DNA from: Pristiophorus japonicus
Lineage: Eukaryota
Direction: 5' to 3'
Assembly: GCF_044704955.1 (NCBI RefSeq)
Contig: NC_091979.1
Coordinates: 151,218,001-151,282,000, forward strand
DNA length: 64,000 nt
Position 1 is the stretch's first letter. Each line of letters starts with the position of its first letter. Shown here piece by piece: positions 1-31,261 of the stretch. Both the position numbers and the translations under genes were made by a program. The notes beneath the pieces were generated by a model. It was not told where the DNA came from. It saw only the letters and a list, made by a program, of their open reading frames with translations, and made no database searches.

Positions 1-3000
1 GCACTGTATATAAGCCGGAACATGGGAGTGCATGCTTTACAGATAAACAACTTCACTCCCCCCACATAGTCAAAGTGAAAACTATTTACAAGGTGAGGTG
101 GTCGGGAGCCTTTCTTTCACTGGTGGACCGCCTCGGTACAAATGTCTGTTCTGGTGTGTTGGCTGTGCCCTCGCTGGGCTGGCTTTTGTTGGCCCTGCAG
201 GGCTGCTGGGTGAGCCTGGCCTTGCTGGGCTGTTGGGCGTGATAGGTTCGATTTCCTGGTTCGGCGTGGTGTCGTTGATCCTTTGGGTGTGTGTTGTAGG
301 CTCGAAAAAGGTGGTGTCTGCTGTGGGTTGTTCAGGGCAGTCTGTGAACCACAGCCTCGTTTGGTCCAGGTGCTTTCTGCAAATTTGTCCATTGTCTAGT
401 TTGACCACAAACACCCTATTCCCTTATTTAGCTATCACTGTGCCTGCGATCCACTTGGGACCATGTCCATAGTTTAGCACATACACAGGGTCATTCAGAT
501 CAATTTCCCGTGACACAGTGGCGCGACCATCGTTTACATTTTGTTGCTGCCGCTTGCTCTCTACCTGATCATGCAGGTTGGGGTGAACCAGCGAGAGTCT
601 GGTTTTAAGTGTCCTTTTCATGAGTAGCTCAGCCGGGGGCACCACTGTGAGCGAGTGGGGTCTCGTGCGGTAGCTGAGCAGTACTCGGGACAGGCGGGTT
701 TAGAGTGAGCCTTCTGTGACTCGTTTAAGGCTCTGTTTGATGGTTTGTACTGCCCGCTCTGCCTGCCCATTGAAGGCTGGTTTAAACAGGGCCGAGGTGA
801 CATGTTTGATCCCATTGCGGGTCATGAATTCTTTAAATTCGGTACTGGTGAAACATGGCCCATTGTCACTGACCAGTATGTCAGGCAGGCCGTGGGTGGC
901 AAACATGGCCCTCAGGCTTTCAATGGTGGCTGTGGCGATGCTTCCCGACATTATTTCACATTCAATCCATTTTGAAAAAGCATCCACCACCACCAGGAAC
1001 ATTTTACCGAGAAACGGGCCCGCATAGTCGACATGGATCCTCGACCATGGTCTGGAGGGCCAGGACCACAAACTTAGAGGTGCCTCTCTGGGCGCGTTGC
1101 TCAACTGAGCACATACGCTGCATTGCCGTACACAGGACTCTAAGTCAGAGTCGATACCGGGCCACCACACTTGGGATCTGACTATCGCTTTCATCATTAC
1201 TATACCCGGGTGTGTGCTGTGGAGATCCGAGATGAACGTCTCCCTGCCGTTTTTTGGTAGCACTACGCGGTTACCCCACAACAGGCAGTCTGCCTGAATG
1301 GACAGCTCGTCCTTTCGCCGCTGGATCGGCTTGATTAGTTCTTGCATTTCAACGGGGATGCTGGCCCAGCTCCCATGCAGTACACAGTTTTTTACTAGGG
1401 ATAGCAGAGGATCTTGGCTGGTCCAAGTCCTAAACTGGCGGGCCGTGACAGGTGATTTATCATTTTCAAATGCTTCCATGACCATCAACAAGTCTGCGGG
1501 CTGCGCCACCATCAACAAGTTTGCAGGCTGTGCCATTTCCACCCCCGTGGTGGGCAATGATAGCCGACTGAGAGCATCCGCATAGTTCTCGGTGCCTGGC
1601 CTGTGGCGGATGGTATAGTTATACACTGATAGTGCGAGTGCCCACCTTTGTATGTGGGCTGAGGCATTAGTATTTATCCCTTTGTTTTCAGCGAACAGGG
1701 ATGTGAGGGGCTTGTGATCGGTTTCCAGCTCAAATTTGAGGCCAAACAGGTACTGATGCATTTTCTTTACCCCGAACACACACGCTGATGCCTCTTTCTC
1801 AATCATGCTGTAGGCTCTCTCGGCCTTAGACAAGCTCCTGGAAGCATAGGCGACAGGTTGCAACTTCCCCGCAATGTTATGTTGTTGTAATACACACCCG
1901 ACTCCGTACGACGACGCATCACATGCTTGCACAAGTCTTTTACACGGGTTATACAATACAAGCAGCTTCTTGGAGCATAAAATGTTTCTGGCTTTCTCAA
2001 AAGCAATTACTTGGTTTTTTTCCCCATACCCATTTCTCACCTTTGCGCAATAACACATGCAGGGGCTTTAAGAGGGTGCTTAACCCTGGTAGGGAAGTTA
2101 CCAAAATAGTTGAGGAGCCCCAGGAACGACCGCAGCTCCATGACAGTCTGTGGCCTGGGCGCGTTCCTGATAGCCTCTGTCTTGGCGTCTGTGGGCCGAA
2201 TGCCATCCACCGCGATCTTTCTCCCCAAAAACTCCACTTCTGTTGCCATGCAGACGCATTTTGACCTCTTCAGCCGCAGACCTACGCGATCCAATTGCTG
2301 GATGACCTCCTCCAGGTTTTGTAGGTGCTCGCCGGTGTCCCGACCCGTGACCAATATGTCATCCTGAAAGACCACCGTGTGTGGTACTGACTTGAGTAGG
2401 CTCTCCATGTTTCTCTGGAAGATCGCTGCAGCCGACCGAATTCCAAACGGGCATCTGTTGTAGATGAACAGTCCCTTGTGCATGTTGATGCAGGTGAGGC
2501 CCTTCGAAGACTCCTCCAGCTCCTGCATCATGTAGGCCGAAGTCAGGTCGAGCTTGGTGAACGTCTTGCCTCCCGCCAGAATCGCAAATAGGTCGTCTGC
2601 CTTAGGTAGTGGGTATTGGTCCTGTTGCGAGAAACGATTAATAGTTACTTTATAATCGCCGCAAATCCTGACCATGCCATCACTTTTGAGTACTGGAACA
2701 GTCGGCTGGCCCACTCACTGAATTCCACTGGGGAGATGATGCCCTCGCGTTCCAGCCTGTCCAGCTCGATTTCCACCCTCTCCCTCATCATGTGAAGTAC
2801 CGCTCGCGCCTTATGGTGAATGGGTCGTGCCTCTGGGATCAAGTGGATCCGCACCTTCGCCCCGGAAAAGCTTCCAATGCCTGGTTCAAAAAGGGTAGGA
2901 AATTTGTTGAGAACCTGGGTACTTGAGGCCTCATCGACATGTGATAGTGCTCGGATGTCATCCCAGTTCCAGCGGATTTTGCCCAGCCAGCTCCTTCCAA

Positions 3001-4769
3001 GCAGTGTGGGGCCATCGCCTGGGACAATCCAGAGTGGCAGTTCGTGCACCATGCCCTCATAGGTGACCTTGACCATGGCACTGCCCAGGACAGTGATAAG
3101 CTCTTTGGTGTACGTTCTTAGTTTCGCGTGGATGGGGCTCAGGTCTGGTCTGAATGCCTTGTTTTTTTTTTAAATTCGTAGCCAATCGTTCCAATTCTTT
3201 GTCAAATCACAAACGCCAGAGGTCACCTTGCACACATCAAGGATCACTCTGCACCAATGCTCTTAGCCAAAAGGCCTAGAGCCACTGCACCGTTCCTGGA
3301 AGTACTGCAATACCAGGTTCGTGCCATGGAGGTGGATGGGTCAGGCCCCCCACACACCTCCGTGGAGGTGGATGGGTCAAGCCACCCCACCCACCTCCTA
3401 TTTCCAAAAAGCAAGCATATACCTTCCTGATCCAGGGAGAACCACTTTGGGGTCATGGTGGTTACTCCCCTGTCAGGTCAGTTACGCATGATCTTAGCCA
3501 AAAGGCCTTGTTGCACCACAATCTCTCAAACATCTTTTTACTCATGATGGATTGGCTAGTGCCAGTGTCCAGTTCCATGGCTACGGGTAAGCCATTCAAT
3601 TTTACGTTTAGCATTATAGATGGACATTTCATCGAAAATGTGTGCACCCCGTGTACTTCAGCATCTGCCTCCTCTCTCTGAGGCTCGAAATTGCTTTGAT
3701 CCACCATGGAGTGATCTTCCTCTGCCACGTGGTGGTTAGCAGGTTTTGCAGAGCTTGCAGCTCATTTGCATGCTCGTTGGATGTGCCCCATTGTTCCACA
3801 GCTCTTGCAAACATACCCTTTGAAGCGGCATGAATAGGCTGAATGGAAGCCTCCACAACGCCAACAAGGTGTGAATCCTTTGTTGGGGACTCTGAGTCAT
3901 CCGGGTCACCTGAGGCCTGCTGGCAGTTACAGACTCGTGGGTTCTGCTCTGTACATTTCTGCTCACAAACACAGTTCCAGTTAATTTATGAACATTGCTA
4001 GCACTTGTGTGCTAAGAGATTTGTTTGGTGTTATCACTGGTGGACATAAATGCCTGTGCTATCGCAATGGCCTTGCTGAGGGTCGGTGTCTCTACAGTCA
4101 AAAGTTTTCATAGGATGGTCTCATGGCCAATGCCCAGTACAAAAAAGTCTCTGAGCATTTGCCCCAGGTAGCCATCAAACTCACATTGTCCTGCAAGTCG
4201 CCTTAGCTCGGCGACGTAGCTCGCGACTTCCTGACCTTCAGGTCGCTGGCACATGTAGAACCGATACCTCGCCATCAGCACACTCTCCCTTGGGTTAAGA
4301 TGCTCCTGAACCAGTGTACATAGCTCCTCATATGACATCTATGGGTTTCACCGGAGCCAAAAGATTCTTCATGAGGCTGTAGGTCGGTGCCCCGCAGACC
4401 GTGAGGAGGACCGTTCTCCTTTTTGCAGCACTTCCTTCTCCGTCCAGCTCGTTGGCTACAAAGTACTGGTCTAGCCGTTCAACATAGGCTTCCCAGTCCT
4501 CACCTTACTAGAACTCCTCCAGGATGCCCACAGTTTGCTGCATCTTTGCGTTGGATTCGTATTCTCGTGGCCAGTTGTTGTGTTCCTAACACAGATGAGG
4601 CTATACACAGGGAGGTTAAAGTAACAATGACCACAGTCTTTAATAAGACACTCCAGAGAAAGGAACAGGCCTTAGGGGCCGGCTTATATACAGTGCTCCC
4701 AAGGGATGCTGGGATCTCTTGGGACTTCAAAGGATGAGCTCCCTGATGGCGGAACATGGGAGTGCATGC
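1..4769 (-). mobile_element. Ty3/Gypsy LTR retrotransposon A (Mag/K02A2.6-like), decayed; same family as element D
   Basis: Frameshifted gag (4108-4543), protease (MELDTGTSQS), RT (VVFQDDILV), RNase H (CDASSYGVG, ETDHKPL) and integrase (HSTHPG..C..C, SDNGP). 5' LTR 4576-4769 lacks its first ~17 nt and is followed by PBS TGGCCACGAG. The 3' LTR runs off the window start (1-50); polypurine tract at ~55-64. Confidence 0.95.
3164..3504 (-). mobile_element. Chimeric U2/U1 snRNA-derived A-tailed retroposon (SINEU-like) inserted in the protease region of element A
   Basis: Absent at the homologous site of element D (27536-27559). TSD GCCTTGTT at 3156-3163 and 3505-3512; A tail. Contains the U2 5' motif GGCCTTTTGGCTAAGATCA, a U1-like 5' segment and U2 stem-loop IV ACCTGGTATTGCAGTACTTCCAGGAACGGTGCA. 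Confidence 0.9.
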
Positions 4770-8119: not shown

Positions 8120-11100
8120 TGTTATATATGTAAACCTGTAAATACCTTGTGTAACCACCAGAGAGCTCATATACCCTGAAGTCCCAAGGGATCCCACAAT
8201 TCCTTGGGAGCACTTGTACTTAAGGAGGCCTCACAGGGTGGAGAGGCACTCTGGAGATCTGTAATAAAAGACTAAGGTCACACTTCACTTTGAGCTCACA
8301 GTATCTGGTCAGACTCTTTATTCATATATAACAACTGGTGACGAGATACAGATGACGAACCCAATGATGCAAAGAACAGTGGACATCCTGGAGAAATTTT
8401 TGGAGGGAGATGATTGGGAAACCTTTGTGGAGCGACTTGACTAATACTTTGTGGCCAACGAGCTGGAAGGAGAAGCAAATGCTGCCAAACGAAGGGCGAT
8501 TCTCCTCACCGTTTGCGGGGCACCAATGTATGGCCTCAGGAAAAATCTGCTTGCTCCAGGGAAACCCACAAAGAAATCATACGATGATTTGTGCACACTG
8601 GTCCGGAAGCATCTGAACCCGAAGGAAAGCGTTCTTATGGTGAGGTACCGGTTCTACACGTACAAAAGGTCTGAAAGCCAGGAAGTGGCGAGCTATGTCG
8701 CCGAGCTAAGAGGCCTTGCAGGACATTGCGAATTTGAAGGACATTTGGAGCACATGCTCAGGGACATCTTTGTACTTGGCATTGGCCACGAAGTGATACT
8801 TCGCAAACTTTTTACTGTAGAGACCCCAATCTTGAGTAAGGCCATAGCGATAGCCCAGACGCTCATTGCCACCAGCGACAAGACCAAGCAAGTCTCTCAG
8901 CACATGAGTGCTGCTACAAGTACTGTGAACAAAGTAATGTTGTTTTCGAATCGCAATATATAGGGCAGGCCTCATATGCAAGCAGCTGCATGTCCACAGA
9001 TATCTCAGAGTCCACCATCAAAGGTGATGAATGATAGGCCATTAACACCTTATTGGCGCTGCGGGAGTGATCATCATTTCTATTCATGCCGCTTCAAAGG
9101 ATACATTTGCAAGGGCTGTGGAACAATGGAACATCTCCAACGTATGTGCAGGCGAGCTGCAAATCCTGTTAATCCTGCAAACCACCATGTTGCAGAGGAG
9201 GACAGATCCATGGCGGATCACGATGAACCAGAGCCTCAGACCGAGGAGGCAGAGGTATATGGAGTGCACACATTTACCACAAAGTGTCCCCCGATAATGC
9301 TGAAGGTTCAATTAAATGGACTCCTGATATCAATGGAGCTGGGCATGGGCGCGAGCCAGTCCATTATGAGCAAAAAGACTTTCGATAAATTGTGGTGCAG
9401 CAAGGCCTCAAGGCCAGTCCTGACTCCCAATCGCACTAAACTAAGAACTTACACAAAGGAACTGATTCCCGTAATCGGCAGTGTTACGGTAAAGGTCTCC
9501 TACGATGGAGCGTGCACAAGTTACCAGTCTGAGTGGTACTGGGTGATGGTCCCACGCTGCTCGGCAGAAGCTGGCTGGGAAAGATACGCTGGAACTGGGA
9601 CGATGTCCGAGTGCTCTTGTCCGTCAGTGACACTTCGTGTGCCCAGGTCTTCAACAAGTTTCCCTCACTGTTCGAACCAAGCATCGGGAAGTTCCAAATA
9701 GCAAAAGTGCAGATCCACCTAATTCCGGGGGCGTGACCCATCCATCACAAGGCGAGAGCAGTACTGTACATGATGAGAGAGAGGGTGGAGATTGAGTTGG
9801 ACCGGCTGCAACGAGCGGGCATCATTTCGCCGATCGAATTCAACGACTGGCCAGTCCGATTGTTCCAGTCCTCAAGGGAGACAGCACCGTCAGAATCTGT
9901 GGTGATTACAAAGTTTCTCCCTGCAGGAACAATACCCACTACCAAAGGCAGACGACCTTTTTGCAACGCTGGCGGGAGGAAAGACCTTCACGAAGCTGGA
10001 CTTGACCTCAGCCTACATGATGCAGGAGCTGGAGGAATCATCGAAGGGCCTCACCTGCATCAACACGCACAAAGGTTTCTTCATTTACAACAGATGCCCA
10101 TTTGGGATTCAACCAGCCGCGCCGATATGTCAGAGAAACATGAAAAGCTTACTGAAGTCGGTTCCGCGCACAGTGGCCTTCCAGGACAACATCTTGGTTA
10201 CAGGTCGGGACACAATCGAGCATCTGCAGAACCGAGAGAGGTTCTTATTCGGCTCAACCGCGTGGGGCTCAGGTTAAAACACTCGAAGTGCGTTTTCCTG
10301 GCGCCTGAAGTGGAGTTCCTGGGGAGAAGAATCGCGGCGGATGGCATCAGGCCCACCGATTCGAAGATGGAGGGAATCGAGAACGCACCGAGGCCACAGA
10401 ACGTGACAGAGCTGCAGTAGTTTCTAGGACTCCTGAACTACTTTGATAACTTCTTACCGGGTCTCAGCACACTGTTAGAACCACTGCATGTCTTACTGTG
10501 TAAAGGAGGCGAATGGGTATGGGGCAAAAGCCAAGAAAATGCCTTTGTAAAAGCTAGGAAACTGTTATGCTCAAATAAATTGCTTGTGTTGTATGATCCA
10601 TATAAGCATTTGGTACTAGCATGTGATGCGTCGTCACAAGGTGTCGGGTGTGTATTGCAACAAGCTAATGAATCTGGGAAATTGCAACCAACCGGTTGCT
10701 TATGCATCCAGACTTCTGTCTAAGGCTGTGAAAGCCGACAGCATGATTGAAAAAGAAGCGTTGGCGTGTGTCTATGGGGTAAAGAAAATGCATCAATACC
10801 TGTTTGGGCTCAAATTTGAATTGGAAACTGAACATAAGCCACTGATATCCCTCTTTTCTGAAAGTAAGGGGATAAATATGAATGCATCGGCCCACATCCA
10901 GAGATGGGCGCTCACGTTGTCCGCATACAACAACGCCATCCGCCACAGGCCAGGCACAGAAAACTGTGCCAATGCTCTCAGTAGGCTGCCATTGCCCACC
11001 ACAGGGGTGGAAATGGCACAGCCCGTAGAATTAGTCATGGCAATGGAAGTATTCGAGAGTGAGCAACCACCCGTTACCGCCCAACAGATTAGAAACTGGA

Positions 11101-11534
11101 TGAGCCAGGACCCCTTACTCTCCCGAGTAAAAAACTGTTTGCTTCACGGGAGCTGGTCCAGTGTCCCATTAGAAATGCAGGAAGAGATAAAGCCGTACCA
11201 GTGGTGCAAAAATGAAATGTCTATACAGACAGACTGCCTTCTGTGGGGTAATCGGGTAGTGGTACCCAAAAAGGGCAGGGACACTTTCATTAGTGATTGC
11301 CACAGTACTCACCCAGGCAATGATGAAAGCGATAGCCATATCCCACGTGTGGTGGCCCGGTATCGATGCGGACTTAGAGTCTTGCGTGCACAAATGTAAC
11401 ACATGCTCACAGATAAGCAATGCATCCAGGGAGGCGCCATTGAGTTTATGGTCTTGGCCCTCCAAACCACGGTCTAGGGTCCATGTCGACCAGACAGGCC
11501 GGTTCTTGGGTAAAATGTTCCTTGTGGTTGTCGA

Positions 11535-14500
11535 TGATATATCCTTACTATACAATATAAATGCACACGAGGCCCATACTTGAGAGAAGGTCACTCTGTG
11601 ACCAGTTACCTTTATTACCAAGACCTCAAGTGATGGAGGTGTGTGGAGCTTCCCCTTTTATACCTGAAAGTCCAGGTAAGGAGTGTTTCCCACAAGTTCA
11701 CCCCCTTGTGGTCAATGTTCTCAAGGTGTACAACTTAGGTCAGCTTATACATGGGTTACAATGATAGTTGACATCACCTCCCGCCCCAAAGTCTTATTGG
11801 GATCACAGGTTAAGTCTCTCTGGTGGTTTACGCCTGAGTTGGGGCTCCGGTTGTTGGGCGCTGGCTGAGTGTCTGCTGTTTGCGGTGCCTCAGGCCTGTC
11901 CGGACTGCTCACAGTGACTGGGCTCTCCTCCACTTGGTTCTGGTGTTAGGTCACCTGTGGTAGAGTAAACTCTATGTCGTGTTCTTCCTCTGCTTCTTCT
12001 ATGGGATTGCTGAACCTCCTTTTAGTTTGATCCACGTGTTTGCGGCAGATTTGTCCATTGGTAAGTTTAACGAATAAAACCCTATTCCCCTCTTTGGCAA
12101 TCACAGTGCCTGCAAGCCATTTGGGCCCGGCAGCGTAATTAAGGACAAAAACAGAATCATTGACATCAATGCATCGTGCCCTCGCATTCCTGTCATGGTA
12201 GTCACATTGTGACTGATGCCTGCTCTCAACAATTTCTTTCATAGTAAGGTGTATAAGGGATAACCTGGTTTTGAGCGTCCTTTTCATTAGCAGCTCTGCG
12301 GGTGGAACCCCATTGAGCATGTGTGGTTGGGATCTATTGGCCAACAGGAAGCATGCTAAGCGGCTTTGTAGGGAACCCCCTTGGATTCTGAGCATCCCCC
12401 GTTTGATTATCTGCACTGTTCATTCCACCTGGCCGTTTGAGGCCGGCTTGAACAGTACTGTTCTGTCATGGTTGATTCCATTGCCTGCCATGAAGTCCTG
12501 GAATTCAGTGCTTGTGAAGCACAGGCCATTGTCGCTGACCAAGACATCCGGTAGACTATGGGCGGCGAACATTGCCTGTAGACTTTCTACCGTGGCAGAG
12601 GATGTGCTTGAATTTAAAATGGCACACTCAATCCATTTGGAGTAGACGTCTACTACAACCAAAAACATTTTTCCCATGAAAGGACCTGCTTAGTCCACAT
12701 GGATGCATGACCATGGCTTGGCGGGCCAGGACCAGGGGCTAAGGGGGGCTTCCCTGGGTGCGTTGCCCAGCTGAGCACACGTGTTGCACCTGCGAACACA
12801 AAGTTCCAGATCTGCATCTATCCCTGGCCACCAAACGTGTGACCTGGCAATTGCCTTCATCATGACAATGCCCGGGTGCTCATTGTGAAGTTCTCTGATA
12901 AACACCTCTCTGCCCACCTGGGGCATGACTACACAGTTTCCCCACAGTAGGCAATCGGCCTGAATCGAGAGTTCATCCTTGCGCCTATGAAACGGTTTAA
13001 ATTCCTCAGGGCATGCCCCGTACGTGGCTACCCAGTCCCCATTCAGGACACATTTTTTAACTGAAGACAGTAGCGAGTCTTTATTTGTCCAGACTTTAAT
13101 CTGACGGGCTGTCACAGGTGAGCCTTCGGTTTCGAAAGCTTCAACAGCCATGACCATCTCAGCATCATGCTCAGTTGCCCCCTCAGTGGTGGCTAGTGGG
13201 AGCCTGCTGAGTGCATCGGCGCAGTTTTCAGTGCCCGGTCTGTGCCGAATTGTGTAGTTATAGGCGGCTAACGTGAGTGTCCACCTCTGTATGCGGGCCG
13301 ATGCATTTGCATTTATGGCCTTGTTGTCGACCAAAAGGGACATTAGGGGTTTGTGATCTGTCTCCAGCTCAAATTTCCTGCCAAACAGGTACGAGTGCAT
13401 TTTTTCTACTGCATATACACATGCTAACGCTTCCCTTTTCTACCATCCCGTAACCCCTTTCTGCCTGGGACAGACTTCTGGAGGCATAAGCTACCAGCTG
13501 TAACTGACCATTGGCATTCACATGCTGCAACACACATCCGACCCCATAGGACGACGCATCGCACATTAAAACAAGTTTCTTACACGGGTCATATAACGTT
13601 AGAAGTTTGTTAGAGCACGCAATTTGTTATGCTCCATCAAAAGCCCTTTCCTGGTTGTTCCCCCAGACCAAATCACGACCTTTGCATAGGAGTACGTGTA
13701 GCGGCTCTAACAGAGTGCTCAATTTGGGAAGAAAGTTATCAAAATAGTTCAGGAGCCCCAGGAATGAACGCAGCTCCGTCGTGTTACGGGGCCTGGGTAT
13801 TCTCTGGATCGCTTCCGTTTTGGACGCAGTCGGTCTGATCCCGTCTGCTAATACCCTCCTCCCCAGGAATTCTACCTCTGGAGCTAAGAAGACGCACTTC
13901 GCCTTTTTCAGTCGCAGCCCTACCCGGTCCAGTTTGCGTAGCACCTCCTCCAGGTTGTGGAGGTGTTCTTCAGTATCACGACCTGAAAAACCACCGTCCT
14001 TGGAATCGACTTGAGGAGGCTTTCCATATTTCGCTGAAAGATCGCGGCGGCCGAACGAGTCCCGAACGGACATCTGTTATACTCAAACAACCCCTTGTGT
14101 GTCATGATGGTGGTCAGCTTCTTCGACTCACTCGCCAGCTCCTGGGTCATGTAAGCTGAGGTCAGGTCCAATTTTGAAAAAAGTTTGCCACCGGATAGCG
14201 TCGCAAGGAGGTCCTCCGCTCTCGGTAGCGGGTACTGGTCTTGGAGTGACACCCGATTGATGGTGGCCTTGTAATCGCCATATATCCTGACCGACCCATC
14301 CGCCTTGAGCACCGCCACGATCGGGTTCGCCCAGTCAATGAATTCGACTGGCGAGATGATGCCTTCCCTCAGCAGGCGGTCCAATCGCATTCTATCTTTT
14401 CCCGCATCACGTACGGCACCGCTCTGGCCTTGTGGTGCACTGGCGTCCGGGTTTATGGGTTTTGGCTCCCATGAAAGTGCCGATGCCAGGTTGAAATAAT

Positions 14501-16228
14501 GAGTCAAATTTGTCCAGGACCTGTCTCTATAGAAAAAATTGCATTGACATCACCCCATTTCCAGTTCATGACAGCAAGCCAACTCCTCCACAGAAGTGCA
14601 GGACCTTCCCCTTGGACAATCCAGAGTGGCAACTTGTTCTCCGAATCTTTATGGGTCATGACTACCGTGGCGTTGTCTAGTAGAATGATCTCCTTTGTAT
14701 ATGTCCGTAGCTGTGCGACACACGGCAATAAATTTGGCCTCCTGACCTTGGACGTCCACAACTTGTCGAACTGTTTGATACTCATCAGGGACTGGCTGGC
14801 CCCCGTGTCTAGCTCCATTAATACGGGATGCCATTGAGGAGCACTTCCATCATTATCGGTGGCGTCCTGGTATATGAATTGTATATGTGCTCCACATGAA
14901 CTTGCTGAACTTCAGCTTCCAGCGATTTCCCCCAGTATTCATTCGGCCTCGTAGGGCTTACATCGGGCCCGTCCTCATTGTACATCAACCTGGCTGCAGG
15001 CTTCCTGCACATACGCGCCAAGTGACCGCTGACATTGCAATTTCTGCAGGTATATTGCTGATACCTGCAAGCTCTGGCTGGATGTTTGCCTCCACATCTC
15101 CAGCATAAGCTGGAGGCCCCGTTGTTGGAAACAAAAGGTCCATTACCAGTCGATCGTCTCTGACTGTCTCTGGCTCTGTAACTGTCCTTAAGCGCACCAT
15201 TAACAGGTGTTGATGGCCCCATTACTGGCCGCATTGTCCAATGCGATGGCATGAATCGCCGTTCAGCTAGTAATTGTCTCTGTTGAATTCCCCCTTTGCG
15301 TTCGACTACATGCTGGAGCATATCCGATTGCCCCTGTCTGCCTAGAGAACTGTGTGCCACGTTAACAATGTTGACTCCCTGGTTGTTTGCCGCATTTGAG
15401 CCAAGATTTTTGTCATACATCATTCTGGTCTCTTCCTCCCCTGAGATAAATGTCTGGGCTATCAGAGCCGCCGCTTCCAAGGTCAAGTCTTTGGTCTCAA
15501 TCAGTTTCCTGAAAACCCCAGCGTGCCCGATGCCCTCATTAAAAAAGTCTCGCAGCATCTCCGCTCTGCATGCATCTGGGAACTTACATAGGCTCGCCAG
15601 TCGTCGGAGATCTGCCACGAAGTCTGGAACTCTTTGCCCTTCTCGCCGCCGGTGCGTGTAAAACCGGTGTCTCGCCATGTGCGTGCTGCTCGCCTGTTTA
15701 AGGTGTTCCCTAATCAACTTACTGAGCTCTTCAAACGTCTTGTCCGCCAACTTCTCTGGCGCTAGAAGGTCCTTCATCAGGGAGTACGTTCTGGATCCAC
15801 AAACCGTCAGGAGATGAGCCCTGCGTTTGTCGGCCGAACCCTTTCCCAACCATTCTTTAGTGACAAAACTATGCTGTAGTCTCTCAATAAAGTCGTCCCA
15901 ATCATCACCAACACAGTACCTCTCTTCTGTGCTGCTAGTAGCCATGCTCGCGTGGTTTAAATCCCAGTTTCTCGTCGCCAATAATATGTCCTTACTATAC
16001 TGTATAAATGCACACGAGGCCCATACTTGAGAGAAGGTCACTCTGTGACCAGTTACCTTTATTACCAAGACCTCAAGTGATGAAGGTGGGTGGAGCTTCC
16101 CCTTTTATACCTGAAAGTCCAGGTTAGGAGTGTCTCCCACAAGTTCACCCCTTTGTGGTCAATGTTCTCAAGGCGTACAACTTAGGTCAGCTTATACATG
16201 GGTTACAATGATAGTTTAATACATGACA
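11535..16228 (-). mobile_element. Ty3/Gypsy LTR retrotransposon C, nested antisense in the integrase of B
   Basis: LTRs 15982-16228 and 11535-11773, PBS TGGCGACGAG, TSD GTCGA/GTAGA; frameshifted pol. Confidence 0.95.
14818..15944 (-). CDS. Gag of element C, open, with two CCHC-type zinc knuckles
   Basis: MATSSTEERYCVGDDWDDFIERL...CWRCGGKHPARAC...CRNCNVSGHLARMC; a frameshift follows at the start of the protease. Confidence 0.75.
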
Positions 16229-17389
16229 GTAGATGTGTATTCCAAGTAGATTGAATGTGAGATAATGTCGGCAAGCACGTCTTCTGCCACCACTGAAAGC
16301 CTGCGGGCCATGTTTGCCATGCACGGCCTGTCTGATGTCCTTGTGTGCGTCAACGGGCTGTGTTTCACCAGTGCCGAGTTCATAGAGTTCGTTACCCACA
16401 AGGGATCAAACATTTTACATCTGCCTCGTTCAAACCAGCATCCAACGGTCAGGCAGAGAGAGCAGTGCAAACAATAAAGCAATGCTTGAAGAGGGTAACT
16501 GAAGGCTCACTGCAGACTTGCCTATCCCGAGTCCTGTTTAGTTACTGCATGAGACCCCACTCGCTCACTGGAATTCCACCCGCTGAACTGCTCATGAAAA
16601 GAGCACTAGAGACCTGGCTCTCGTTAGTCCACCCTGATCTACACGAACAAGTAGAGATCAGGCGGCTTCAACAAAGTACATATCATGATAGCGCAAATGT
16701 GTCATGCAAAATTGAAATTAATGATCCTGTATTTGTGTTGAACTATGGACAAGGTCCCAAGTGGCTTCTCGGCACTGTTGTGGCCAAAGAGGGGAGTAGG
16801 GTGTTTCGGGTCAAACTTTCAAAAGGATTCATTCACCGGAAACACTTGAACCAAACCAAACTCAGATTCACGGACTATCCAGAGCAACCCACATTGGACC
16901 CTACCTTCTTTTTGACCTCCCCAACACGCACACCAGTGGCAACCGACACAGCGGTTGACCACGAAGCAGAACCCATCACCTGCAGCAGCCCAGCAGGATT
17001 CACCACACCAGGCAACCCAGCAAGGTCAGCTACAGAGCAGCCCAGCGAGGGCCCAACAAACGACTCACCAAAACCAGCATTTGTACCGAGACGATCAACC
17101 AGGGAAAGAAAGGCCCCAGATCGACTCACCTTGTAAATAGTTACACTACAGACTTTGGGGAGGGGTGGAGTGTTGTTATATATGTAAACCTGTAAATATC
17201 TTATGTAACCACCAGAGGGCTCATCACCTGGAGTCCCAAGGGATCCCACAATCCCACAATTAGGAGCACCTGTACTTAAGGAGGCCTCACAGGCTGGAGA
17301 GGCACTCTGGAGACCTGTAATAAAAGACTAAGGTCACACTTCACTTTGAGCTCACAGTATCTGGTCAGACTCTTTATTCATACATAACA

Positions 17390-26253: not shown

Positions 26254-29200
26254 TGTTGTGTATCTGTAAAGCATGCACTCCCATGTTCTGCCACCAGGGA
26301 GCTCATCCCTTGAAGTCTCAAGGGATCCCAGCATCTCTTGGGAGTACTGTATATAAGCCGGCCCCTAAGGCCTGTTCCTCATTCTGGAGTATCTTATTAA
26401 AGCTGAGGTCACTATTACCTTAATCTCCCTGTGTGCAGCCTCATCTATGTTAGGAACACAATAACTGGTGACAAGAATACGAAATCCAACGCAAAGATGC
26501 AGCAAAATGTGGGCATCCTGGACAATTCTCGGAGGGTGAAGACTGGGAAGCCTATGTCGAACGGCTAGACCAATACTTTGTAGCCAACGAGCTGGACGAA
26601 GAAGGAAGCGCTGCAAAAAGTAGAGCGGTCCTCCTCACAGTCTGCGTGGCACCGACCTACAGCCTCATAAAGAATCTTCTGGCTCCGGTGAAACCCACAG
26701 ATAAGTCGTATGAGAAGCTGTGTACACTGGTTCAGGAGCATCATAACCCAAGGGAGAGCGTGCTGATGGCGAGGTATCAGTTCTACACGTGCCAGCGATC
26801 TGAAGGTCAAGAAGTGGTGAGCTACGTCACCGAGCTAAGACGATTTGCAGGACAATGTGAGTTTGATGGCTACCTGGAGCAAATGCTCAGAGATGTTTTT
26901 GTACTGGGCATTGTCCACGAGACCATCCTATGAAAACTTTTGACTGTAGAGACACTGACCCTCAGTAAGGCCATTGTGATAGCACAGGCGTTTATGTCCA
27001 CCAGTTATAACACCAAACAAATCTCTCAGCACATAAGTGCGAGCAATGTTCATAAATTAACTGGAACTGTGTTTGTGAGCAGAAATATACAGGGCAGAAA
27101 CCACGAGTCTGCAACTGCCAGCAGGCCTCAGGTGACCCAAATTACTCAGAGTCCCCAACAAAGAATAAATGCAAGGCAATTCACACCTTGTTGGCGTTGT
27201 GGAGGCTTCCATTCAGCCTATTCATGCCGCTTCAAAGGGTATGTTTGCAAGAGCTGTGGAACAATGGGGCAGCTCCAACGAGCTTGCAAACGAGCTGCAA
27301 GCTCTGCAAAACCTGCTAACCACCACGTGGCAGAGGAAGATTGGTTCATGGTGGATCAAAGCAATTTCGAGCCTCAGAGAGAGGAAGCAGATGCTGAAGT
27401 ACACGGGGTGCATACATTTTCGACGAAATGTCCACCTATAATGCTAAATGTAAAATTGAATGGCTTACCCGTAGTCATGGAACTGGACACTGGCGCTAGC
27501 CAATCCATCATGAGTAAAAAGATGTTTGAGAGATTGTGGTGCAACAAGGCATTCAGACCAGCCCTGAGCCCCATCCACATGAAACCGAGAACGTACACTT
27601 AAAGAGCTTATCACTGTCCTGGGCAGCGCCATGGTCAAGGTCACCTACGAGGGCACGGTGCACGAACTGCCATTCTGGATTGTCCCGGGCGATAGCCCCA
27701 CGCTGCTTGGAAGGAGCTGGCTGGGCAAAATCCGCTGGAACTGGGATGACATCCGAGTGCTATCACATGTCGATGAGGTCTCATGTACCCAGGTTCTTAA
27801 CAAATTTCCTTCCCTTTTTGAGCCAGGCATTGGAAACTTTTCCGGGGTGAAGGTGCGGATCCACGGTCCCAGAGGCACGATCCATTCACCACAAGGCACG
27901 AGCAGTACATCACATGATGAGGGAGAGAGTGGAAATCGAGCTGGACAGGCTGCAACGCGAGGGCATCATCTCCCCAGTGGAATTCAGCGAGTGGGCCAGC
28001 CCGATTGTTCCAGTACTCAAAAGTGATGGCACGGTCAGGATTTGCGGCGATTATAAAGTAACTATTAATCGTTTCTCACTACAGGACCAATACCCGCTAC
28101 CTAAGGCAGACGACCTATTTGCGACGCTGGCAGGAGGCAAGACGTTCACCAAGCTCGACCTGACTTCGGCCTACATGATGCAGGAGCTGGAGGAGTCTTC
28201 GAAGGGCCTCACCTGCATCAACACGCACAAGGGACTGTTCATCTACAACAGATGCCCATTTGGAATTCGGTCGGCTGCAGCGATCTTCCAGAGAAACATG
28301 GAGAGCCTACTCAAGTCGGTACCACACACGGTGGTCTTTCAGGACGACATATTGGTCACGGGTCAGGACACCGCCGAACACCTACAAAACCTGGAGGAGG
28401 TCCTCCAGCGACTGGATCGCGTAGGGCTGCGGCTGAAGAGGTCGACATGCGTCTCATGGCAACAGAAGTGGAATTTTTGGGGAGAAAGATCGCGCCGGAC
28501 GGCATTCGGCCCACAGACACCAAGACAGAGGCTATCAGGAACGTGCCCAGGCCACAGAATGTTACGGAGCTGCGGTCGTTCCTGGGACTCCTCAACTATT
28601 TTGGTAACTTCCTACCGGGGTTAAGCACCCTCTTAGAGCCCCTACATGTGTTATTGCATAAAGGTGAGAACTGGGTATGGGGAAAAAAACAAGTAATTGC
28701 TTTTGAGAAAGCCAGAAACATTTTATGCTCCAACAAGCTGCTTGTATTGTATAACCCGTGTAAAAGACTTGTGCTAGCATGTGACGCGTCGTCGTACGGA
28801 GTCGGGTGTGTATTACAACAAGCTAACGTTGCGGGGAAGTTGCACCCTGTCGCCTATGCTTCCAGGAGCTTGTCTAAGGCCGAGAGAGCCTACAGCATGA
28901 TTGAGAAAGAGGCATTAGCGTGTGTGTTCGGGGTAAAGAAAATGCATCAGTACCTGTTTGGCCTCAAATTTGAGCTGGAAACCGATCACGAGCCCCTCAC
29001 ATCCCTGTTCGCTAAAAACAAGGGGATAAATACTAATGCCTCAGCCCGCATACAAAGGTGGGCACTCGCGCTATCAGCGTATATCTATACCATCCGCCAC
29101 AGGCCAGGCTCTCAGTCGGCTACCATCGCCCACCACGGGGGTGGAAATGGCGCAGCCTGCAAACTTCTTGATGGTGGCGCAGCCCGCAGACTTGTTGATG

Positions 29201-31261
29201 GTCATGGAAGCATTTGAAAATGATATATCACCTGTCACGGCCCGCCAGATTAGGACTTGGACCAGCCAAGATTCTCTGCTGTCCCTAGTAAAAAAACTGC
29301 ATGGGAGCTGGGCCAGCATCCCCGTTGAAATGCAAGAGCCAATCAAGCCGTTCTAGCGGCGAAAGGATGAGCTGTCCATTCAGGCAGACTGCCTGTTGTA
29401 GGGTAACCGCGTAGTGCTACCAAAAAAGGGCAGGGAGATGTTCATCTTGGATCTCCACAGCACACAGCACATAGTAATGATGAAAGCAATATCCAGATGC
29501 CACGTGTGGTGGCCCGGTATCGACTCTGACTTAGAGTCCTGTGTACGGCAATGCAGCGTATGTGCTCAGTTGAGCAACGCGCCCAAAGAGGCACCACTAA
29601 GTTTATGGTCCTGGCCCTCCAGACCATGGTCGAGGATCCATGTCAACTATGCAGGCCCGTTTCTCGGTAAAATGTTCCTGGTGGTGGTGGATGCTTTTTC
29701 AAAATGGATTGAATGTGAAATAATGTCGGGAAGCACCACCACCGCCACCATTGAAAGCCTGAGGGCCATGTTTGCCACCCACGGCCTGCCTGACATACTG
29801 GTCAGTGACAACGGGCCATGTTTCATCAGTGCCGAATTTAAAGAATTCATGACCCACAATGGGATCAAACATGTCACCTCGGCCCCGTTTAAACCAGCCT
29901 TCAATGGGCAGGCAGAGCGGGCAGTACAAACCATCAAACAGAGCCTTAAACGAGTCACAGAAGGCTCACTCCAAACCCGCCTGTCCCGAGTACTGCTCAG
30001 CTACCACACGAGACCCCATTCGCTCACAGGGGTGCCCCCGGCTGAGCTACTCATGAAAAGGACACTTAAAACCAGACTCTCGCTGGTTCACCCCAACCTG
30101 CATGATCAGGTAGAGAGCAGACGTCAACAACAAAATGTAAACGATGGTCGCGCCACTGTGCCTTTTTTTTTATTGTTGCTTTACATGGTCGACCTAAACA
30201 GAGTTGGTGTATTTGGTGACCGCTTTCGTGCCCTCGGAGATTGCGTGTTTGGCCAGTTCCCCCGGCAGCATGAGGCGGATGGCGGTTTGGATCTCCCGGG
30301 CTGAGATGGTGCGCCGCTTGTTGTAGTGAATGATGTGCGAGGCCTCGGAGGCAATGCGCTCGAAGATGTCGTTGACGAAGGAGTTCATCACACTCATGGC
30401 CTTGGAGGTTCGGGTGGAGGGATGAACCTGGGTTAACACTCTGTACACGTAGATGGAGTAGCTCTGCTTGCGGATTTTCCTCCACTTTTTAGGAGCTCTC
30501 TCGCTGATTTTGGTAAGCGACTGTTTCGATACCTTTCTGGACGTGCCCTTGCCCGCCTCTGGCATTGCTGTCGGTTCAATGCGAGCTCTACTCAATGGGA
30601 AATTGATCTGAATGACCCTGTGTATGTGCTAAACTATGGACATGGTCCCAAGTGGATCGCGGGCACGGTGATAGCTAAAGAAGGGAGTAGGGTGTTTGTC
30701 GTCAAATTAGACAATGGACAAATTTGCAGAAAGCACCTGGATCAAATGAGGCTGCGGTTCACAGACTGCCCTGAACAACCCATAGCAGACACCACCTTTT
30801 TCGAGCCCACAACACACACTCAAAGGATCAAAGACACCACCCCGGACCAGGAAATCGAACCCATCACGCCCAACAGCCCAGCAAGGCCAGGCTCACCTAG
30901 CAGCCCTGCAGGGCCAACAACATGCCAGCCCAGCGAGGGCACAGCCAACACACCAGAACAGACATTTGTACCGAGGCGGTCCACCAGGGAAAGAAAGGCT
31001 CCTGACCGCCTCACCTTGTAAATAGTTTTCACTTTAACTTTGGGGGCGGGGGGCGGAGTGATGTTGTGTATCTGTAAAGCATGCACTCCCATGTTCTGCC
31101 ACCAGGGAGCTCATCCCCTGAAGTCCCAAGGGATCCCAGCATCCCTTGGGAGCACTGTATATAAGCCGGCCCCTAAGGCCTGTTCCTCACTTATTAAAGA
31201 CTGAGGTCACTGTTAGTTTAACCTCCCTGTGTGCAGCCTCATCTGTGTTTGGAACACAATA
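26254..31261 (+). mobile_element. Ty3/Gypsy LTR retrotransposon D, full length, decayed
   Basis: LTRs 26254-26463 and 31062-31261, exact TSD ATTCT, PBS TGGTGACAAG, polypurine tract ~31042-31058; gag-PR-RT (FQDD)-RH-IN with stops and frameshifts. Confidence 0.97.
30194..30565 (-). CDS. Histone H2B variant, processed retrocopy with an open 123-aa ORF
   Basis: MPEAGKG...[17 protein letters not shown]...[23 protein letters not shown]...[39 protein letters not shown]. Followed by AATAAA running into A9; the insert 30163-30594 is absent from element A. Expression is unknown. Confidence 0.9.

Follow-up and report, generated by a model that had tools for sequence, protein, structure and literature searches.

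A U2/U1-derived short retroposon family in Pristiophorus japonicus with copies in U2 genes at the Keno site

The chimeric element at positions 3507-3172 (minus strand) of the window, a 64,000-nt stretch of the Pristiophorus japonicus genome (contig NC_091979.1, positions 151,218,001 to 151,282,000), is almost certainly a recent member of a several-thousand-copy family of short retroposons derived from U2 and U1 snRNA. What is new here is that U2 genes contain copies of this family, inserted at the Keno site, that one subfamily (A2) stands behind the U2 upstream flank and that dispersed copies match these residents. Comparison of the sequences indicates that the U2 Pol II promoter is likely to drive the gene-resident copies and that the proteins of a Keno-like Tx1 LINE are likely to disperse them. 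Candidate source loci, matching dispersed copies and an intact partner LINE, all in one genome, turn the transcription of SINEU elements, the snRNA-derived SINEs of crocodilians, into a testable question.

Anatomy and insertion site of the window copy

Aligned to U2 and U1 genes of P. japonicus itself (a U2 array copy in L147 and the commonest of eight U1 gene copies, four of which are identical), the window copy is a U2-U1-U2-U2-tail retroposon of about 345 nt, less 10 nt of its 5' end. Read along the minus strand, it opens with a head of U2 nt 11-35 (3483..3507; 23/25 identical), nt 1-10 having been lost through 5' truncation. There follows U1 nt 3-57 (3426..3482; 45/54 identical), which comprises the U1 5' end and stem-loop I with an altered loop; its alignment score of 62 compares with a maximum of 32 in 500 shuffles. 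U2 nt 96-140 (3369..3414; 33/45 identical) holds a degenerate Sm-site region and a first stem-loop-III-like unit, and U2 nt 109-186 (3285..3364; 63/77 identical) holds a second such unit and stem-loop IV. The stem-loop-III region is duplicated, the two units being 33/35 identical when measured in one full-length copy. Next comes another stretch from the U2 5' end (nt 7 to about 36; 3249..3280; 26/30 identical, weak in the last ten bases), which may be compared with the inner heads of a sister family, B, and the element closes with a 77-nt tail (3172..3248), homologous to the tail of that family, and eight A's (3164..3171).

All parts that a preliminary description had listed for this chimera, the A tail included, are present. 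Its anatomy holds, with the 5' edge of the element now placed at 3507, where the first three bases overlap the target-site duplication (TSD). The first U2 piece runs to nt 35, not nt 29. In the comparison with Rfam that had been proposed, the window copy matched U2 with an E-value of 4e-5 and U1 with one of 0.094, neither match reaching the gathering score.

The tail has no match to the LINE described below on either strand (scores 31 and 36, against a shuffled 95th percentile of 33 and maximum of 37), to host U1 or to host U2, and it gave only chance matches in Rfam at E up to 10. No tRNA, 5S or 7SL head was matched in Rfam at E up to 5, and the window copy is therefore not a classical Pol III SINE; the element contains three internal runs of four to five T's. 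Rfam matches to Prion_pknot, mir-1003, PVT1_4 and IhtA were set aside, being put down to chance or to the internal duplication. The stretch was found in eight sequencing runs from three studies, none of them listed as RNA and thus without bearing on expression. In a sequencing run from a second organism, 0.23 of the words were common with the stretch, which gives no evidence of spread to other species.

The copy lies within a Gypsy-type LTR retrotransposon, host A (18..4769, minus strand, its extent being that of the match to host D), the protease frame of which lies upstream and the RT frame downstream of the insertion. The 8-bp TSD, AACAAGGC, stands at 3512-3505 and 3163-3156 (minus strand), and the last three bases of the 5' copy are the element's first three. 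The same sequence occurs once, as the empty target site, in the paralogous host D (27543..27550, plus strand), just as the first account of the element had it. Hosts A and D are 91-94% identical in three long matches, whereas the long U1 and U2 segments of the window copy are 73-83% identical to the host RNAs, which bears out the earlier claim that the mosaic is older than this insertion. Further Gypsy-type paralogs of host A occur in the window at 8395-11769, 12623-16910 and 26524-30920 (69-96% matches), and several LINE/SINE 3' ends in the window presumably resemble shark HE1/HER1 repeats in style.

Family size, subfamilies and target sites

A DNA search of the 5.9-Gb genome returned 2,173 candidates. 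All 40 that were scored are full-length at 98-100% identity, a sample that consists of the best-scoring candidates and is therefore biased to young copies; the earlier suggestion of an amplifying snRNA-derived SINE family outside crocodilians is thereby substantiated. Exact matches to the U2/U1 junction number at least 2,292 genome-wide (control 0), and exact matches to a tail motif number at least 5,819 (control 2). The other origin first considered, copying from an unknown chimeric RNA, need not be invoked. The nearest copies lie 0.6-0.9% from the window copy, and the family is probably still active. The first 40 junction loci of contig C1 yielded 48 copies, which differ from the window copy by a median of 5.3%; 9 of them lie within 3%, a spread that implies several subfamilies of different age.

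Full-length copies measure about 345 nt plus an A tail and start at U2 +1. Under a strict exact-match rule, a TSD of at least 6 bp was found at 70 of 113 loci (range 6-23 bp, median 14), and 27 of the 113 contain tandem copies or re-insertions. Among the 73 copies with a 3' end, 54 start within nt 1-20 and 19 start after nt 100. The family has the structural features of the SINEU class: a U1/U2-derived head, a length below 500 bp, a 3' poly(A), junctions shared among many copies, and TSDs with 5' truncation.

The subfamilies are A1, to which the window copy belongs, A2, with 386 exact heads genome-wide, and A3, with 217 exact matches and a head that is exactly U2 nt 1-37. They stand about 9% apart, and heads have been replaced freely. 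The sister family B (L010:1000-1250, L041, L063, L035) consists of nearly the whole of U2, a second U2 5' piece and the tail. Its tail aligns to that of family A with a score of 50 (shuffled maximum 31), and family B is, to judge by sequence, likely to be close to the ancestor of family A. It was also seen at U2 nt 37/38 in the U2 genes of L134, L135, L138, L139, L118 and L119.

Column counts over 70 sites gave a purine at -3 in 76% and at -2 in 79%, a pyrimidine at -1 in 87%, A at +1 in 92% and A or T at +2 in 91%. Since the TSD rule bars A at -1 and makes A at +1 more likely, the rule-free signal is the purines at -3 and -2 and the excess of C/T over G at -1. The dispersed target motif, RRY/AW, which is short and partly set by the TSD rule, fits U2 nt 35-39 (AGT/AT).

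Besides U2 nt 37/38, one other recurring target was seen, in the RNase H region of a Gypsy family. This target, a single position hit antisense, accounts for 7 of the 70 resolved sites (L020, L062, L196, L198, L207, L212, L216) and recurs in L005, L056, L215 and L256; in 17 of 112 loci, long flanks match host D of the window. Two pile-ups occupy this hot spot in L254/L255 (G000:C4:75015000-75034999). In one, a LINE fragment, a SINE and a full-length LINE (99.2% to an array copy) lie at a single site; the other holds 10 SINE tails of several subfamilies.

Copies in U2 genes and the Keno-like LINE

The U2-gene-resident copies and the Keno-like LINE lie outside the window and were absent from the preliminary description. 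Poly(A) joined to U2 from nt 38 onward was matched 79 times, at 57 distinct places (control 0); the chance expectation for an exact match to the U2 site is 0.0002 events, or 0.01 if the motif is granted. Of these 57 junctions, 54 were classified. The Keno-like Tx1 LINE occupies U2 nt 37/38 in 27, family A occupies the same site in 21 and family B in 6. The assembly contains 280 exact uninterrupted U2 5' ends against 57 interrupted ones, counted by exact patterns that miss variant U2 genes, and this represents a load on essential arrays.

Two kinds of U2 cluster with different upstream flanks were seen, one with units of about 770 bp and GTT/GAT microsatellites, the other with units of about 18-21 kb on C9. 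The clusters lie at G000:C19:69624000-69726500, on C1003, C1832, C1868 and C4309, and at C9:110.99-111.32 Mb and 113.4-113.8 Mb. Nearly every assembled unit of the C19 array holds a LINE or a SINE.

We use 'promoter' for the upstream flank common to intact U2 genes. In a set of 169 upstream-flank ends, taken from cluster loci chosen for having insertions and hence not a random sample, 137 lead into (nearly) uninterrupted U2, 13 into the LINE, one into a truncated SINE plus LINE and 18 into A2. In each of the 18 A2 residents the flank is followed by A2 from +1, then by an extended A tract (13-109 in arrays) and U2 38-190. Gene nt 28/29-37 are missing and no TSD is present; the U2 head of the SINE replaces the first 37 bases of the gene. 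The residents comprise three sequence types (15, 2 and 1 copies) and two flank types, which points to at least two independent A2 insertions, and the 15 identical copies may reflect array expansion of one insertion.

Three dispersed copies (L195, L216, L219) show zero substitutions relative to resident L142, and three others (L198, L203, L206) are 0.3% away. Such copies are what gene-resident sources would predict, the direction of copying not being given by the match. In vertebrates the U2 promoter elements lie outside the gene, about 60 and 220 bp upstream (PMC4494074). Source copies of A2 would very probably use the U2 promoter, and those of A1, the subfamily of the window copy, would be likely to do so, though with less assurance. 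The promoter-SINE junctions are known from the assembly alone, in which most short-unit U2 arrays are found on short unplaced contigs. No A3 copy was seen behind the promoter in the cluster loci examined. The only A1-type copy seen at the U2 site (L131, G000:C9:110994479-110994835) belongs to a C9 unit and differs by 5.1% from the window copy; relative to L133 it lacks about 470 bp of proximal upstream flank, and it is possibly a dead source copy.

The full-length LINE is about 5.7 kb long and, in the C19 array, lies after the U2 head. A 1,147-aa open frame is present in 5/5 full-length array copies. ORF2 carries APE, RT and zf-RVT (zinc finger) domains, and ORF1 carries ZCCHC3 RNA-binding domains and a CCHC knuckle. 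Homologs of its protein come from amphibians and fish (37-49%), one of them named 'transposon TX1 149 kDa protein'; BAD04856.1 (39%) and BAC82621.1 (37%) are records without an element name, and the local match of highest identity, 65% across 8% of the query, is to a protein from a shark. By insertion site and predicted domains, the LINE conforms to the definition of Keno.

This LINE is also dispersed, with 487 exact 3' ends genome-wide, and many dispersed copies are older (84-98% identity). The 5' end lay within the locus in 19 copies, and 12 TSDs were resolved among them; of these, 10 have a purine at -2, 9 a pyrimidine at -1 and 8 an A at +1. LINE and SINE occur together at single targets outside U2 genes, as LINE-SINE-LINE in L254/L255 and as a LINE between two A1 copies in L246. 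At array and dispersed sites alike (L140-L143, L150, L254), the LINE begins with U2 1-37, in which nt 34 is a G as a fixed variant. This head of its own implies that the LINE likely uses the same promoter capture as the SINE. Its 5' UTR contains, 20 nt after the U2 head, ATGCAAAT, which we take to be an octamer-like motif. The Keno-like LINE is probably the mobilising partner of the SINE. The tail of the SINE does not resemble the LINE, a finding that would fit recognition through poly(A) but leaves the partner unproven. Poly(A)-based RNA recognition is known for L1-type elements.

A proposed cycle and its relation to known systems

We propose that the family alternates between two homes, a model that we favour on balance. 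The SINE would re-enter U2 genes at the Keno site with its own head put in place of that of the gene, capture the external Pol II promoter and be dispersed in thousands, and each re-entry could add a U2 1-37 head. Its starting point is observed: family copies and intact Tx1 LINEs share U2 nt 37/38 in arrays, and in 18 array units the SINE's U2 head directly follows the flank of intact genes. The flank-SINE junction would form when a U2-like cDNA end anneals to the target, as proposed for R2. From the U2 promoter, the RNA would start at U2 +1, cross the SINE with its A tract and continue into the remaining U2. Keno ORF2 would prime reverse transcription in the A tract at U2-like nicks (RRY/AW), giving A-tailed, TSD-flanked copies such as the window copy.

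The mosaic would have grown by repeated insertion at U2 nt 37, each event adding a U2 1-37 head, together with jumps of the template to complete U2 and U1 RNAs. The two U2 5' pieces both stop at about nt 35-37, and the heads of A3 and of the LINE are exactly nt 1-37. In the simplest order, a short tail inserted into U2 nt 37 would give U2(1-37)-tail; a jump to whole U2 would give family B; a U1 5' piece would replace the front and stem-loop III be duplicated; and re-insertion at U2 nt 37 would supply the present head. Fresh U1 5' pieces of about 50-60 nt were seen on the 5' ends of single SINE or LINE copies (L173, L175, L176, L179), and those on L173, L175 and L179 indicate that template jumps still occur.

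The strongest competing account, which we consider unlikely, accepts a real, Tx1-mobilised family and differs as to A1. This subfamily would be transcribed by read-through from other promoters, in a gene or at the Gypsy hot spot, its U2 head would be added or trimmed by template jumps, and U2 residents would be one route only. Read-through from Mariner-N4 was proposed for crocodilian SINEU (Kojima 2015, PMC4494074). A search for an A1 copy behind either U2 flank gave seven matches, none of them at a promoter, and this, like the template jumping seen in the fresh U1 pieces and the share of resolved sites taken by one antisense Gypsy position, is consistent with read-through. However, 33 dispersed copies reach U2 +1 behind flanks that are unrelated to each other, with no upstream extension in common, and the fixed differences between the head and U2 in at least 2,292 copies argue for copying from a source element and not from fresh U2. 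A promoter-fused A1 source may be unassembled or turned over, given arrays on short unplaced contigs, but this is an excuse and not evidence.

Less probable still is that U2-promoter sources exist and that another LINE (Tx1 or L1) does most of the dispersal, Keno merely placing the element in U2 genes. Such a division would suit a tail without LINE similarity, the excess of dispersed SINE over LINE ends (5,819 against 487 exact motifs) and the greater age of many dispersed LINE copies, and the partner survey covered the Keno-like LINE only. It accords poorly with the dispersed targets common to LINE and SINE and with the presence of young intact LINEs. The motif RRY/AW, moreover, fits U2 AGT/AT and not the L1 target site, TT/AAAA.

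It is very improbable that the mosaic is a variant snRNA used by the host, the retrocopies of which have spread passively. The array residents do have a U2 upstream flank, stem-loop IV is retained in families A and B, and the predicted fold of the element RNA beats 100/100 shuffles (z -5.5), a score inflated by the internal duplication. Yet the element lacks most of U1 and the branch-point-pairing region of U2, its Sm-site region has changed, its subfamilies are diverged and exchange heads, and U2 genes are interrupted by its insertion. An origin as a single template-switch pseudogene, or a chance resemblance, with which sub-threshold Rfam scores would agree and for which the preliminary description had looked to a single genome-wide copy, is refuted by thousands of copies with identical junctions and different TSDs.

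If true, the two-home cycle would answer both the question of SINEU transcription and that of the layered heads, in a second vertebrate lineage. The data suggests an independent origin of snRNA-headed SINEs outside crocodilians, and the young insertions are possible population markers.

SINEU-1 to SINEU-3 were found in crocodilians and in no group outside them (Kojima 2015, PMC4494074). Their transcription was left open, U1 and U2 being without an internal promoter and no SINEU cDNA or start site having been found (PMC4494074), a doubt repeated in the available portion of PMC5786205. The SINEU target is Mariner-N4 and the partner is Tx1-Mar (PMC4494074). SINEU and the present family have in common layered U1/U2 heads, poly(A), TSDs, 5' truncation, tandem insertion around one TSD, internal oligo-T runs, 5' U1 additions on single copies (SINEU-2) and, probably, a Tx1-clade partner. 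The present family differs from SINEU-1/2/3 in lineage and segment order, being set apart by description only, and unlike SINEU it has copies in real U2 genes, at the Keno site and behind the U2 flank. The literature covered, which excludes subscription journals and Repbase Reports, contained no SINEU outside crocodilians and no U2-gene-resident SINE; the family may already be catalogued in Repbase or Dfam.

The retropseudogenes of snRNAs and chimeras of the U6-L1 type arise by template jumps onto snRNAs, as independent one-off events (PMC4494074). Single U1 additions of this kind are seen here too, whereas the present family has thousands of copies with common junctions. Keno inserts after U2 nt 37, according to the accessible parts of PMC6136364 and PMC4640811. 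The present LINE resembles Keno, as these excerpts describe it, in its APE endonuclease, in its insertion after U2 nt 37 and in the same 3' flank. It differs from that partial description in having a probable SINE partner and wide dispersal (487 exact 3' ends), with dispersed copies that can carry a U2-like head.

The way of life of the SINE is, by analogy, closest to that of the R2 SIDEs of 28S rDNA, so far as the consulted sections of PMC3414825 describe them. SIDEs are non-autonomous, occupy a LINE site in a multicopy RNA gene and rely on co-transcription (PMC3414825); the SINE has the first two traits and would share the third. The same sections present SIDEs as LINE deletion derivatives excised by a ribozyme, whereas the present SINE has no detected LINE sequence, is built of snRNA pieces, occupies thousands of other sites and would need no 5' processing if its start is U2 +1. 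For R2 itself, upstream target sequence retained in the RNA anneals to the target and gives uniform 5' junctions, in the account available from PMC3774820. The flank junction of the A2 residents resembles these target-homology junctions as they appear in that account (PMC3774820).
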